A stretch of 7,307 nt of DNA from a virus (taxonomy: Duplodnaviria > Heunggongvirae > Uroviricota > Caudoviricetes): the IMG/VR virus record IMGVR_UViG_2619619129_000005. One strand, written 5' to 3'. A program made the position numbers and the translations under genes. The notes below the pieces were generated by a model. It was not told where the DNA came from, made no database searches, and worked only from the letters and a program-made list of their open reading frames with translations. Shown here in pieces: positions 2,037 to 6,608 of the stretch (the stretch's first letter is position 1; the number at the start of each line of letters is the position of its first letter).

Positions 2037-2459
2037 TCACAGCATCACCTCCTGAAATTCCCCCTGATAAAACGCCAGCGCTCGCTGCATAACCTCACTC
2101 TTCCGGCACTCGCGACAGATTATGTTCTGACGCCTGTCGTAGCGGCGTATTTCTCCGTCAGGTAATGACCTGATAAGGTCCGGATCAACCACAGCCGTTT
2201 TCTTCACCTTTGCCCTTGAGAGTTTTTTGCGGGCGTTTTGCCAGTCCTTACGGGCCTGTTCAGACGGGAATAATCCGCAGCCGGAGTTGTATACATCGCC
2301 ACTGGCTACCAGTTCTCTGGCAAGAACGCTCATCAGATATCTTGTTGCCCCAGTTTTAGCTTCCAGTTGTCGTAACGTCTCGCGCCCACTCTGGCGTACG
2401 AGTTCAACAACCTGCCCTTTAATTTTTTCCCGCTCTTCTTGTGTAAAAACTTTTGCCAC
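2037..2459 (-). CDS. Hypothetical basic phage protein (140 aa), directly downstream of the replication gene
   Basis: ORF MAKVFTQEEREKIKGQVVELVRQSGRETLRQLEAKTGATRYLMSVLARELV..., GTG start at 2459..2457 with AGGAGG (complement of 2464..2469) upstream. Arg/Lys-rich, one CxxC (ICRECRK). No family assigned. Same strand as the replication gene with a 40-bp gap. Confidence 0.55.
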   Translation of the reverse strand: MAKVFTQEEREKIKGQVVELVRQSGRETLRQLEAKTGATRYLMSVLARELVASGDVYNSGCGLFPSEQARKDWQNARKKLSRAKVKKTAVVDPDLIRSLPDGEIRRYDRRQNIICRECRKSEVMQRALAFYQGEFQEVML

Positions 2460-2499
2460 AAGTCCTCCTGAAAATTACCTCATGACCAGAAATTAACAC

Positions 2500-3576
2500 T
2501 TACCCCCTGAAGCCCGGCGGAATTTCGTTATCCGGTTCAGAAATATGATTCACACAACGCTGGTTGTTCGTGCCGCTTACCGGGAGCAACCAGGGGTTCT
2601 CAAAATTCCGGTCCGGTCCAAAAAACGTCGTCGCTCGCTGAACAAATTCCGTTCCCGTTTTCCCGGTAGCCGCCAAGTATCTTGCGTAACGCCTCACGCC
2701 ATCCAGCATGGCTTCTGGTGGCACCCCCTCGCGTAATCTGGCCTTCCAGGCACTGAAAGCGGATTTCTTCGGGTTTGCTCCGGCACGCAACGGGTACTCC
2801 CGCCAGACCTGTTCGAACACATCCGGATAATCCACTCGTCCCACAGACTGCCCGGTGTTTTCCGGGACTACCCGATCGGCTTCCCGCTGAATGGCGGAAT
2901 CGGCTTCGGGCTGCTGCAGTTGGTGTGATTGCTCCGGCCTTGCGGTCATCACCTGCTGCACAGCGCCCGAATCGGCTTTCAGCGCATACGCTGAATCGGC
3001 TTCCGGTGTCGTGCCTGCTGGCTGACCAAGATTGACGGTCTGAACATCCCCTGCCTGGTTCGTGGCGTTTTTTACGCCATGGACCATAGTGTTTTGATCT
3101 TCTTGATCTGTATCTTTATCTGTATCTTTATCTGTCGTGACTCGTCGTGACATGTGCGTGACATTTCGTGACGCGCCGTGACAATCGCCATTTTGTTCCC
3201 GCTTTCTTTCCCTCTCTCGCTGCGCCCTCTTGCGCTCTGCAGGAGATTTTGCGGTTTGCGAAATATTGCCGTTGTCCTCTTTAAGCACCTGGCGTTTTTC
3301 CCATCCAGTGATTAAATCACCATCAAGTACCCGCCCCTGCATCGTCTGCAAAATTGAATCAATTACCTCTTCTGTCACGTCGAGCGCACTTGCCAAATCT
3401 TCTGTCGTGACATCAATGTGACCTCGCGTGACATTTCGTGACGCGCTCACCAGGAGGTGGATATACACTGCCATCACTGTTGCAATTGGCTGCCCTGACA
3501 CTCTGGCAATTGTTCGCCACTTAGGGTCATTTGGCATGTCATGCCATAATCTGAGCCAGGCGTTAGCCATACTCAC
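2500..3576 (-). CDS. Phage replication initiation / replisome-organizer protein (358 aa, lambda O-like role) with the origin inside its coding sequence
   Basis: ATG at 3576..3574 with GAGGTGA Shine-Dalgarno upstream. N-terminus MSMANAWLRLWHDMPNDPKWRTIARVSG is typical of phage initiator DNA-binding domains. A low-complexity acidic/basic linker (ERKRAQRERERKRE, DKDTDKDTD) is encoded by the tandem repeats and iterons. Sits where O-like genes sit, downstream of the cro/cII-like genes. Confidence 0.75.
   Translation of the reverse strand: MSMANAWLRLWHDMPNDPKWRTIARVSGQPIATVMAVYIHLLVSASRNVTRGHIDVTTEDLASALDVTEEVIDSILQTMQGRVLDGDLITGWEKRQVLKEDNGNISQTAKSPAERKRAQRERERKREQNGDCHGASRNVTHMSRRVTTDKDTDKDTDQEDQNTMVHGVKNATNQAGDVQTVNLGQPAGTTPEADSAYALKADSGAVQQVMTARPEQSHQLQQPEADSAIQREADRVVPENTGQSVGRVDYPDVFEQVWREYPLRAGANPKKSAFSAWKARLREGVPPEAMLDGVRRYARYLAATGKTGTEFVQRATTFFGPDRNFENPWLLPVSGTNNQRCVNHISEPDNEIPPGFRG
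3096..3182. repeat. Candidate origin, cluster 1: 12-bp tandem ATCTGTATCTTT x2.5 (3106..3135) followed by five CGTGAC iterons
   Basis: CGTGAC at 3136, 3146, 3157, 3167 and 3177, spaced 10-11 bp (one helical turn). Immediately preceded by an AT-rich hexamer-periodic tandem repeat. Lies inside the replication-initiator gene, as ori-lambda lies inside O. Confidence 0.6.
3374..3446. repeat. Candidate origin, cluster 2: four (C/T)GTGAC iterons plus one inverted copy
   Basis: CGTGAC at 3406, 3427 and 3437, TGTGAC at 3417, spaced 10-11 bp; inverted GTCACG at 3374..3379. The 21-mer GCGTGACATTTCGTGACGCGC is identical at 3426..3446 and 3156..3176. TCTGTCGTGAC is identical at 3131..3141 and 3401..3411. 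Confidence 0.6.
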
Positions 3577-3641
3577 CTCTTCTGATACCGAATCTTTTTA
3601 CTCACGAGTTGCCGGAAGCGATTCGATATGGCTATTGTCAG

Positions 3642-4067
3642 TCAATGTACTGCCACAGCATTTCCTGCCGGGCCACCACGGTTCATCTGATTGAAACCGG
3701 CGATTGCCACTGCGACAAAATCATCAGCGTCTCTCACCAGTCGCTCCCGCGTCTCCACCAGCTCCCGAAAATAAGCTGAACTGTGGCTGCGCATTCTGGC
3801 CACCAGCAAAGGTGGCATTGCCTTTTCGATCGCTGGTAACAACGCCTGAATTTTTTCAACTGCATCAGGGGTGTCTTTCTCTACCCAGCGGAAAATTTTC
3901 TGGGTATTGCGAGCCAGGGCTTCCGGATGGCTGTCGTCATACAGTTCCGGGAACGTCATTCCCAGCTCGAAATACGCTTTGGTAATTTTCGCAGCCGGTA
4001 CTTTTTCGCCGTCCGGATGCGCCCAGGCATTCATCGCCATGCGGATGTGTTCATGCTTGATTTTCAT
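3642..4067 (-). CDS. ydaT: YdaT-like protein (141 aa); family once proposed as a toxin, later reported to act as a CII-like regulator
   Basis: ORF MKIKHEHIRMAMNAWAHPDGEKVP... resembles Rac-prophage YdaT as I recall it; length and position (immediately after the Cro-like gene) match. Its ATG (4067..4065) overlaps the upstream gene stop (ATGA), indicating translational coupling. Confidence 0.65.
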   Translation of the reverse strand: MKIKHEHIRMAMNAWAHPDGEKVPAAKITKAYFELGMTFPELYDDSHPEALARNTQKIFRWVEKDTPDAVEKIQALLPAIEKAMPPLLVARMRSHSSAYFRELVETRERLVRDADDFVAVAIAGFNQMNRGGPAGNAVAVH

Positions 4068-4279
4068 GAATCATTCTTTCCTTCGTTCGAGGTGCTATCC
4101 TGCTTCTTGTAAAGTTCTGGGTTGTATTTCAATTCACCGTTAGTAATTTCATCCAGTTCCATTGCGCGAAGTTTGGGAATAACTGCTTTCCACCGCACAA
4201 CAGCCACATGTGAAATTCCAAGAGCCTCAGCTACTAGTCGCTTTTTTTTGAAATAGCGCAGAACATCATCTTTGAACAT
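4064..4279 (-). CDS. Cro-like HTH protein of the YdaS/DicC family (71 aa)
   Basis: ORF MFKDDVLRYFKKKRLVAEALGISHVAVVRWKAVIPKLRAMELDEITNGELKYNPELYKK... with HTH signature (LGISHVAVVRW). ATG at 4279..4277 with AGGAG (complement of 4286..4290) 6 nt upstream. Divergent from the repressor gene. Confidence 0.8.
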   Translation of the reverse strand: MFKDDVLRYFKKKRLVAEALGISHVAVVRWKAVIPKLRAMELDEITNGELKYNPELYKKQDSTSNEGKNDS

Positions 4280-4370
4280 AAAACTCTCCTGTTATTCCGA
4301 GCAGGAGGGTAACAATAGTTACATAGCAATGTCAACCATAGCAACATCACTTGGTAGTAACATTGGTTAC
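4280..4370. promoter_or_regulatory. Divergent OR-like region with two GTAAC-N4-GTTAC operator palindromes
   Basis: GTAAC-AATA-GTTAC at 4309..4322 and GTAAC-ATTG-GTTAC at 4357..4370, centres 48 bp apart. TTGACA on the minus strand (complement of 4330..4335) is a candidate -35 for the Cro-side promoter. The 91-bp gap between divergent start codons is typical of an immunity switch. Confidence 0.55.
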
Positions 4371-5045
4371 ATGAAAAACACTATCAGCGAACGTATTCGG
4401 AATCGTCGAAAAGACGTTGGATTAACCCAACAGCAGGTTGCGAAAGCAATCGGCATATCTCGTGTATCCGTAACAAAATGGGAAAATGGCTCTTCAAAAC
4501 CTGACGGTGAGAATTTGCATCTACTGTCAAAATTGCTTTCCAAATCTCCTGAATGGATTCTTTATGGAAAGGACGGTCACGATAAAACCGATGATCTGCG
4601 TCTGAATCAGTATCTTTACATTAGTGACAACATCGCCCGGTTGCCCGTTTTAACGTGGGAACAGGCTGGTTATTGGGATATGAGTTGTCCAGTAACCGAG
4701 ATTCCTGGCATTAAGAATTGGGTTGATGTCATGACAAAAACCGCTGAAAACTCTTTTTTATTGCATGTTGAGGGAGATGCGATGACAAACTCTAACGGCC
4801 TCCCAACCATCCCCGATGGATCTACCGTGCTGATCACACCATGCTCAAGTAACATTAGAGAACTGGTGGGAAAAATAATCTTAATCCAATTGGAAGGAAC
4901 GCCAAACGTAACACTAAAAAAAGTTGCGATTGACGGACCAAACATCTATCTGTTGTCACTGAATCCGCTTTACAAACCCATCGAACTGAATGGTGGTTAC
5001 ACCATTAAAGGTAAAGTTTCACAAATACATCAATACTTAGACTGA
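4371..5045 (+). CDS. dicA: Prophage repressor: DicA-like HTH N-domain plus LexA/CI-type S24 C-domain, with Ala at the catalytic Ser position
   Basis: N-terminus MKNTISERIRNRRKDVGLTQQQVAKAIGISRVSVTKWENG resembles DicA as I recall it. C-domain LLHVEGDAMTNSNG...TLKKVA...LNPLYKPIELNGGYTIKGKV aligns by eye with lambda CI (VEGNSMTAPTG...FKKL...LNPQYPMI...VVGKV). Start placed at ATG 4371 so both operators stay intergenic (leaderless, like lambda cI from PRM). Alternative starts: ATG 4329 and TTG 4272 (ORF-track start). The symbol is by family resemblance only; K-12 DicA is shorter and lacks the C-domain. Confidence 0.75.
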   Translation: MKNTISERIRNRRKDVGLTQQQVAKAIGISRVSVTKWENGSSKPDGENLHLLSKLLSKSPEWILYGKDGHDKTDDLRLNQYLYISDNIARLPVLTWEQAGYWDMSCPVTEIPGIKNWVDVMTKTAENSFLLHVEGDAMTNSNGLPTIPDGSTVLITPCSSNIRELVGKIILIQLEGTPNVTLKKVAIDGPNIYLLSLNPLYKPIELNGGYTIKGKVSQIHQYLD

Positions 5046-6192: not shown

Positions 6193-6250
6193 TTTCTGGT
6201 GACGTTTGGCGGTATCAGTTTTACTCCGTGACTGCTCTGCCGCCCTTTTT
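6193..6250 (+). ncRNA. dicF: DicF-like small RNA (about 53 nt) with intrinsic terminator
   Basis: TTTCTGGTGACGTTTGGCGGTATCAGTTTTACTCCGTGACTGCTCTGCCGCCC (6193..6245) followed by TTTTT (6246..6250). GGCGG (6209..6213) pairs with CCGCC (6240..6244). The sequence agrees with my recollection of K-12 DicF and sits in the long gap between ydfC and dicB. Exact 5' end is uncertain because it is made by processing. Confidence 0.6.
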
Positions 6251-6419: not shown

Positions 6420-6608
6420 ATGAAAACGTTATTACCAAACGTTAATACGTCTGAAGGTTGTTTTGAAATTGGTGTCACTATCAGTAACCCTGTATTTACT
6501 GAAGATGCCATTAACAAGAGAAAACAAGAACGGGAGCTATTAAATAAAATATGCATTGTTTCAATGCTGGCTCGTTTACGTCTAATGCCAAAAGGATGTG
6601 CACAATGA
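6420..6608 (+). CDS. dicB: Cell-division inhibitor DicB (62 aa)
   Basis: Product MKTLLPNVNTSEGCFEIGVTISNPVFTEDAINKRKQERELLNKICIVSMLARLRLMPKGCAQ matches DicB as I recall it. ATG 6420 with GAGGA (6408..6412) 7 nt upstream. The ORF-track version (from 6315) includes an unlikely 5' extension. Confidence 0.85.
   Translation: MKTLLPNVNTSEGCFEIGVTISNPVFTEDAINKRKQERELLNKICIVSMLARLRLMPKGCAQ

Follow-up and report, generated by a model that had tools for sequence, protein, structure and literature searches.

A probable replication origin formed by phased repeat arrays within the initiator gene of a Qin/lambdoid-type Escherichia coli prophage

The P1 and F plasmids carry two arrays of one iteron, one of which serves control; these arrays flank the rep gene, consist of iterons of 19–22 base pairs (bp), and work together with DnaA boxes. 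OmpR/PhoB-type proteins place a winged helix on tandem direct repeats of 10–11 bp. In phage lambda, the iterons are 18–19-bp inverted repeats that are bound by initiator dimers and form a single array (PMC6022878), and in phage SPP1, one protein has two sets of sites, oriL and oriR, the latter being a separate origin ~13 kb off with its own AT-rich region (PMC6316719). Here, we describe two arrays of a short direct repeat inside the replication-initiator gene carried by a 7,307-nucleotide (nt) stretch of a Caudoviricetes virus record (IMGVR_UViG_2619619129_000005), referred to as the window, which spans the region for immunity and replication of a Qin/lambdoid-type Escherichia coli prophage.

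The arrays, in our assessment, are likely to mark the replication origin of the prophage, located inside its own initiator gene. A linker array followed by AT-rich DNA, the spacing of the repeats at one helical turn, and the co-variation of the repeats with the initiator all support this reading. No origin has so far been assigned to this widespread initiator, and no published description of the origin or of its motif was found in the open-access literature.

Repeat arrays and adjoining DNA in the initiator gene

The window contains 11 copies of the hexamer CGTGAC, which reads GTCACG on the coding strand of the initiator gene, where 2.85 would be expected, and none of 200 shuffles reached this count. 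Five copies make up the linker array (Table 1), starting at 3136, 3146, 3157, 3167, and 3177 with spacings of 10, 11, 10, and 10 bp (10, 10, 11, and 10 in coding order), that is, one per helical turn. We propose this cluster as the core initiator-binding array of the origin. The exact copies of the N-terminal array start at 3406, 3427, and 3437, and the array encodes amino acids (aa) 44–57 (SASRNVTRGHIDVT), which, in the winged-helix domain, form the end of helix 31–47 and the loop after it. A single core in inverted orientation downstream of this array holds the same position in most relatives of the GTCAC class (tabulated as 'inv' ~150). The 21-mer GCGTGACATTTCGTGACGCGC is present without mismatch at both 3156–3176 and 3426–3446, where no such repeat is expected by chance. 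The first-pass annotation of this DNA had reported the five linker copies at helical-turn spacing (3136–3182), the inverted copy (3374–3379), and the identical 21-mers, all of which are there; it had also counted four copies of CGTGAC at 3406–3442, where three are exact and the fourth, at 3417–3422, is TGTGAC, retaining the core GTGAC alone. Phage Tritos has the same gene, and throughout its complete genome of 46 kb the core clusters only at these two arrays, the motif being overall at the level of chance (84 occurrences vs ~90 expected).

The coding properties of the repeats bear on the level at which they are maintained. Copies of GTCACG occupy all three reading frames and accordingly encode SR, VT, GH, and CH. 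In 22 relatives with S(R/Q)xVTRGHxxVT as a common peptide, the codons of the N-terminal array are nearly invariant: valine is GTC at 44 of 44 positions (23% elsewhere in the same genes), threonine is ACG at 44 of 44 (26%), serine is TCA in 21 of 22 cases (12%), and glycine is GGT in 22 of 22 (20%). Given the fixed codons in the N-terminal array and the repeats in three frames, we conclude from the sequences that selection acts on the DNA, the peptide repeats being a consequence. The translation of the initiator gene contains ASRNVT twice and also DKDTDKDTD, and the earlier proposal that the DNA repeats impose these peptides is upheld by the frames and the frozen codons.

On one side, the linker array adjoins AT-rich DNA. 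Tandem Repeats Finder delimits there a 12-bp tandem at 3101–3135 (2.9 copies, 95% matches, unit TCTTTATCTGTA), which the first-pass annotation had recognized next to the linker cluster with the span 3106–3135. The A+T content reaches 70% in 3096–3135 and 75% in 3092–3131, compared to 46% for the gene, and 3092–3131 is the least stable 30–40-bp duplex in the gene, with an overall rank of 25–28 among ~7,270 scanning windows; all of the more labile segments belong to other AT-rich parts of the window. We propose that the AT-rich region at 3092–3135 is the DNA-unwinding element. The N-terminal array has no adjoining AT-rich DNA (43.9% A+T). A scan of viral contigs with the N-terminal domain, the source of the allele comparison, yielded no matches other than E. 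coli prophages of 100% identity. The positions of the iterons are invariant in 48 distinct E. coli alleles, and the 12-bp tandem ranges from 1 to 4 units.

The AT-rich stretch is abutted, on the side away from the iterons, by an imperfect palindrome that had been overlooked in the first-pass annotation. The palindrome is also found in the POCJ13 and O157 prophages and moves with the exchange module of the C-terminal domain. GC-rich palindromes ~50 nt past the last iteron are common in relatives, with a modest enrichment: on average, 30% of the control blocks fold as well or better, and 24 of 55 loci score ≤0.2. The palindrome is possibly an accessory element of the origin. The promoter and terminator scan of the region returned nothing above the level of shuffled sequence, the sole 'terminator' being the palindrome at 3056–3086, on the non-coding strand.

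Relatives of the initiator and boundaries of exchange

Scanning one genome per species gave 63 further loci from Gamma-, Beta-, and Alphaproteobacteria and from metagenome bins of Acidobacteria. The best phased 5-mer was taken de novo from the linker alone, and with a threshold of at least three phased copies, a linker array (3–7 copies) was present in 54 of the 64 relatives examined. In 46 of these 54 loci, the 5-mer of the linker is phased in the N-terminal region as well, with at least three copies there in 39, and its density is 22.7 per kb in the N-terminal region vs 1.1 per kb in the rest of the gene. The N-terminal regions of loci with a GTCAC linker contain 108 copies of GTCAC and a single AACGC, and those of loci with an AACGC linker contain 57 copies of AACGC and three of GTCAC. 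Even the locus-specific base preceding AACGC (C, G, or T) agrees between both arrays. The motif switches jointly in the two arrays among GTCACG, CGAACGC, GCAACGC, and GTAACGC. The first 45 nt past the last linker copy average 66% A+T across the 54 relatives vs 44% in their genes.

Individual phages illustrate the pattern. Aeromonas phage pAEv1818 and Pseudomonas phage phi1 have no more than the N-terminal ~140 aa in common with the initiator of the window, at ~70% identity, and differ from it in the C-terminal domain and in the helicase or loader genes downstream. This N-terminal part is likewise ~70% identical in D3-like Pseudomonas phages; these and pAEv1818 possess unrelated C-terminal domains and other downstream partners (a DnaC-like loader and a 609-aa protein annotated 'replication protein P'). 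The Aeromonas and Pseudomonas genes contain GTCAC(G) arrays at the same two positions: the N-terminal part has four copies plus inverted copies, and the linker has three or four, with AT-rich DNA of the GATAAAGATA type behind them. The layout is kept in distant relatives with 35–48% identity, namely, Ralstonia phage Firinga (GCAACG at coding-sequence positions 131, 141, 152, and 162 and at 402, 412, 422, and 432) and the Manatee Spring podovirus (CGAACGC at 297, 309, and 319 and at 487–538), and in both, purine- and AT-rich DNA lies past the linker array. In a variant lineage that includes E. albertii (L091, L092, and the E. albertii locus L095), a 21-bp insertion in the N-terminal array, within coding-sequence positions 129–181, creates two extra iterons, for a total of six copies, and adds the peptide TCHGVSL to the loop after helix 31–47; the iteron array can expand inside a folded domain.

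Comparison of prophages locates the boundaries at which these elements are exchanged. DNA similarity to L091 and L092 covers 3113–4073, that is, part of the tandem, both arrays, the coding region of the N-terminal domain, and the YdaT-like gene, and similarity to an O157 prophage with the same C-terminal domain (L093) covers 2502–3095. These limits place the mosaic joint at 3096–3112, inside the AT-rich tandem. Judging from these alignments, the coding region of the N-terminal domain is inherited with both arrays and the YdaT gene as one unit, and the palindrome with the C-terminal domain as another. Joined to an unrelated N-terminal domain, the C-terminal domain is found again in POCJ13 and Stx/O157 prophages, and POCJ13, with the same C-terminal and another N-terminal domain, has no GTCAC array.

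The corresponding gene of the O157:H7 prophage L093 (coding sequence 2499–3590), in which an unrelated N-terminal domain precedes the same C-terminal domain, contains two phased arrays of a motif of its own, AAGGGGCTT, at 11-bp spacing. These are located at coding-sequence positions 187 and 198, in the part encoding the N-terminal domain, and at 443, 454, and 465, in the linker, followed by (GAACAG)n. The two-array layout may be general for this class of initiator genes.

The initiator protein and its genomic setting

The initiator matches PHROG 3729, 'replication initiation protein', over practically its entire length (E = 5.5e-258, residues 3–358 on profile positions 1–356 of 356). Further PHROG matches include phrog_10469, 'DnaD-like helicase loader' (7e-10), and two weak ones to replisome organizer families, phrog_4880 (4e-6) and phrog_5968 (2e-4). 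No Pfam family was matched at E ≤ 0.01, Phage_rep_org_N included, and there is no homology to lambda O by Pfam. The protein consists of an N-terminal winged helix and a basic helix (~aa 1–130), a low-complexity linker, and a C-terminal domain with a DnaT-like tail; homology in the N-terminal domain stops at ~aa 140, and homology in the C-terminal domain begins at ~aa 160. The N-terminal domain models as a winged helix, with the DnaD N-terminal domain as the nearest fold, the type that characterizes DnaD-like or replisome-organizer initiators such as SPP1 gp38. The first-pass annotation had placed a lambda-like origin within a replication-initiator gene, a proposal with which the PHROG identity and the succession of iterons and AT-rich DNA between the two domain-coding parts are consistent; the start that it used, GTG 3576 (358 aa), differs from the RefSeq start, ATG 3570 (356 aa). 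Some homologs of the N-terminal domain (P0041, P0060, P0073, and P0102) have an HNH endonuclease domain (PF01844/PF14279) in place of the replication C-terminal domain.

The C-terminal tail, GTNNQRCVNHISEPDNEIPPGFRG, encoded by the last 24 codons (2500–2571), resembles the C-terminal tail of E. coli DnaT (PDB 6aep, 2ru8, 9zbt). Full-length homology to DnaT is absent, the match to these structures being confined to the last 21–24 residues, and the only NCBIfam match, to PRK02854 (DnaT), is limited to the tail and scores 19 bits vs a cut-off of 201. The Aeromonas homolog likewise ends in PPGF. The tail may mimic DnaT and so engage the host primosome or helicase loader. No helicase-loader gene lies 3' of the initiator gene in the window (2459–2500) or in phage Tritos. 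The O157:H7 prophage L093 and POCJ13, which have the same C-terminal domain, carry a DnaC-like ATPase gene and a DUF1627 gene between the initiator and DUF977 genes, and the window is ~1.5 kb shorter at that place.

The initiator gene has a megablast-level match in 2,699 of 5,426 complete E. coli genomes, with coverage of at least 80% in 1,647. The copies are mostly labeled 'hypothetical protein' in RefSeq, and some are labeled 'phage replisome organizer'. Isolated phages Tritos and Evi also carry the gene, at 98–99% identity. Elsewhere in the window, the DicF RNA and the DicB-like ORF are typical of Qin-type prophages, and the ISNCY transposase remnant suggests local decay of this prophage copy. 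With TTG 4272 as its listed start, the 257-aa open reading frame (ORF) of the repressor runs into the divergent Cro-like gene (4064–4279); the true start is probably a downstream ATG in the 4272–4340 region, in which case the operator/promoter region would be shorter than the ORF list implies.

Table 1 Coordinates of genes and sequence elements in the 7,307-nt window
Feature	Position	Strand	Details
relB	158–397	minus	
ISNCY-family transposase, C-terminal remnant	1475–1885	minus	NCBIfam NF033594, PHROG 8463; 3' of DUF977 gene
DUF977/Ren-like gene	2037–2459	minus	
Replication-initiator gene	2500–3576	minus	358 aa from GTG 3576; 356 aa from ATG 3570 (RefSeq start)
Imperfect palindrome	3056–3086		13-bp arms, 5-nt loop; -10.9 kcal/mol as single-stranded DNA, z = -4.95
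AT-rich region with 12-bp tandem (3101–3135)	3092–3135		GATC at 3096 and 3105
Linker iteron array	3136–3182	minus	Five direct GTCACG (coding strand); encodes aa 131–147
Inter-array DNA	3183–3405	minus	223 bp; encodes rest of winged helix and conserved basic helix (AERKRAQRERERKREQ)
Single inverted iteron core	3374–3379	plus	33 nt downstream of N-terminal array (coding direction); encodes 'DVT' of ALDVTE
N-terminal iteron array	3406–3446	minus	Four direct repeats, 10–11 bp spacing: GTCACG, GTCACG, GTCACa, GTCACG (coding strand)
YdaT/CII-like gene	3642–4067	minus	
P22-Cro-like gene	4064–4279	minus	
S24-peptidase repressor, divergent	4272–5045	plus	
DicF antisense small RNA	6194–6245	plus	Rfam RF00039, 76.7 bits
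ydfA-, ydfC-, and DicB-like ORFs	~6420–6608 (DicB-like)		DicB-like ORF just 3' of DicF

Alternative readings and comparison with known origins

Under the proposed scheme, derepression would lead to rightward early transcription (minus strand) of the Cro-like, YdaT/CII-like, and initiator genes and thereby yield the initiator, the N-terminal part of which (winged helix and basic helix, ~aa 1–130) would bind head-to-tail to the direct GTCACG repeats spaced one turn apart. The five-copy linker array (3136–3182) would nucleate the complex beside the AT-rich DNA with its 12-bp tandem (3092–3135), which would then melt. The C-terminal domain, with its DnaT-like tail, would then bring in the helicase system of the host; no phage helicase loader is encoded adjacently in this prophage. 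The four-copy N-terminal array (3406–3446, with the inverted core at 3374–3379) may provide second sites for the same initiator, either as half of the origin complex or as a control array.

Several points weigh against this interpretation. Searches of the open-access literature turned up neither binding nor replication data on this family, and no DnaA box (≤1 mismatch) is present in 2555–4173. When repeats and flanks are compared among relatives, as the first-pass annotation had advised, both positions are seen to be kept, with 3–7 copies in the linker and an expansion of the N-terminal array from four to six copies in the variant lineage, but the latter array is missing in ~8 of the 54 relatives with a linker array, so not all members of the family require it. 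Between the last copies of the two arrays, the distance is 249–270 nt among relatives, without a conserved helical phase. The putative helix for recognition (aa 69–79, EEVIDSILQTM) has an acidic and hydrophobic character, and the N-terminal domain of DnaD is chiefly a module for oligomerisation, so that more than one surface of the protein comes into question as reader of the repeat. Within aa 5–100, no residue is strictly specific to the GTCAC or the AACGC class outside the array-encoded loop. The conserved basic helix at aa 112–127 is an alternative candidate for the repeat reader; in the basic region at ~aa 100–127, a 10-residue indel separates the two classes. A search of plasmids for autonomous replication returned mostly prophage-bearing large plasmids, chromosome-size records, and two 51-kb circular Pseudomonas phage-like records, which provide no evidence of it.

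A possible, although in our view doubtful, alternative is that only the linker array and the AT-rich tandem constitute the origin, with the N-terminal array being a separate control element of the same initiator that acts by titration or handcuffing, like P1 incA and F incC, or as an autoregulatory roadblock. The lack of AT-rich DNA next to the N-terminal array, its absence from some relatives, the inverted copy downstream that is unique to it, the variable helical phase, and the plasmid precedent of a second array for control would all be in line with such a division of labor. The arrays, however, are ~225 bp apart, always in the same orientation, and co-inherited as a module, features that would suit one looped or wrapped complex just as well. 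Far less probable is the binding of another factor, such as a CII/YdaT-like activator or a host regulator, for transcription control. Lambda CII is an example of a protein that binds direct repeats within coding DNA, and on the plus strand a weak match of the sigma-70 type (3158–3185) overlaps with the linker array, but the promoter scan found one match vs 2.4 in shuffled sequence, the class of the motif tracks the lineage of the initiator, and the initiator is the sole gene common to all 21 GTCAC-class loci checked, the YdaT-like gene and other neighbors not being conserved. Furthermore, four to five copies at one-turn spacing beside AT-rich DNA are the pattern of an origin.

Two further explanations would deprive the arrays of a direct role in initiation. 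That they are, together with the tandem, mainly hot spots of recombination for modular exchange, with replication starting elsewhere, appears quite improbable. The mosaic joints do fall exactly in the AT-rich tandem and the 21-bp identity between the arrays could reflect gene conversion, but lambdoid phages show exchange joints at ori where ori is functional, and a hot spot leaves unexplained the one-turn phasing, the frozen synonymous sites, and the co-variation of the motif across phyla. Hardly credible is the notion that the DNA repeats passively result from peptide repeats, a low-complexity linker, or replication slippage: the tandem varies between 1 and 4 units like a slippage-prone microsatellite and the linker is of low complexity (DKDTDKDTD), but the copies encode different peptides in three frames, the choice of codons is fixed far beyond the background of the gene, and the motif is kept from E. 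coli to Pseudomonas, while in other lineages both arrays have switched coherently to another motif. Reading frames and codons led us to reject the peptide-repeat explanation.

Beyond the assignment of an origin, we put forward, as a speculative and rather unlikely extension, that the bipartite layout represents a specificity cassette, portable and self-contained, in which the N-terminal array is an intragenic control element for the origin proper or its partner in looping. Between motif classes, the N-terminal domain differs consistently in just one segment, the array-encoded loop, aa 47–57, so the same nucleotides might serve both as a binding site and as the code for the loop. If this is the case, the cassette couples origin firing, initiator dosage, and initiator specificity within ~350 bp, and a change in the iteron would automatically change its reader. 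The co-varying pairs of sites and proteins (GTCACG, CGAACGC, GCAACGC, and GTAACGC) represent a natural series for the evolution of initiator specificity. Once defined, the origin would help to predict how compatible and how specific replication is among Qin/lambdoid prophages and Stx-type phages, and the compact origin-plus-initiator module might serve in vectors, should origin activity be confirmed.

Among the described systems, lambda ori within gene O, with its counterparts in P22, phi80, 82, and Stx phages, is similar in its position within the initiator gene, between the parts encoding the N-terminal (origin-binding) and C-terminal (partner-binding) regions, and in that the iterons are followed by ~40 bp of AT-rich unwinding DNA. 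In-frame changes in the length of that AT-rich DNA are tolerated in lambda (PMC6022878), which parallels the 1–4 units of the tandem seen here, and in both cases exchange moves the N-terminal domain together with its sites, as a single module of specificity. Unlike lambda, the initiator described here has no Pfam match to lambda O, its repeats are direct, 10–11 bp long with a 6–7-bp core, and placed one per helical turn, and they form two arrays ~225 bp apart, one of them inside the coding region of the DNA-binding domain, instead of a single array. SPP1 gp38/oriL, with its related origins in the replisome-organizer genes of Gram-positive phages, offers direct repeats along with an AT-rich unwinding element within the organizer's own gene, bound by the organizer, and the predicted fold of the N-terminal domain, nearest to that of DnaD, belongs to the fold class of replisome organizers; unlike the distant second site set of SPP1, the second array here lies in the same gene and lacks an AT-rich partner.

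The P1 (incC/incA) and F (incB/incC) plasmids are similar in another respect, namely, that two arrays of the same iteron serve one initiator and only one of them adjoins an AT-rich region, the arrangement of control-array replicons that is also found at this locus. The plasmid arrays, however, flank the rep gene and comprise longer iterons along with DnaA boxes, whereas those of the prophage are intragenic, spaced at one turn, and without a DnaA box. By this analogy, the two-array design is suggestive of control by titration or handcuffing. Winged helices of the OmpR/PhoB type likewise occupy direct repeats head-to-tail at one-turn spacing of 10–11 bp; being transcription factors with two to a few sites, they are an analogy for the geometry of binding alone. 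Elements of this general kind are thus already known from lambda O/ori and SPP1 oriL, and the comparative sequence evidence supports the view that the distinctive trait of the proposed prophage origin is the conserved second array within the coding region of the N-terminal domain, co-varying with the origin array, an intragenic feature without a demonstrated counterpart in classical phage origins.

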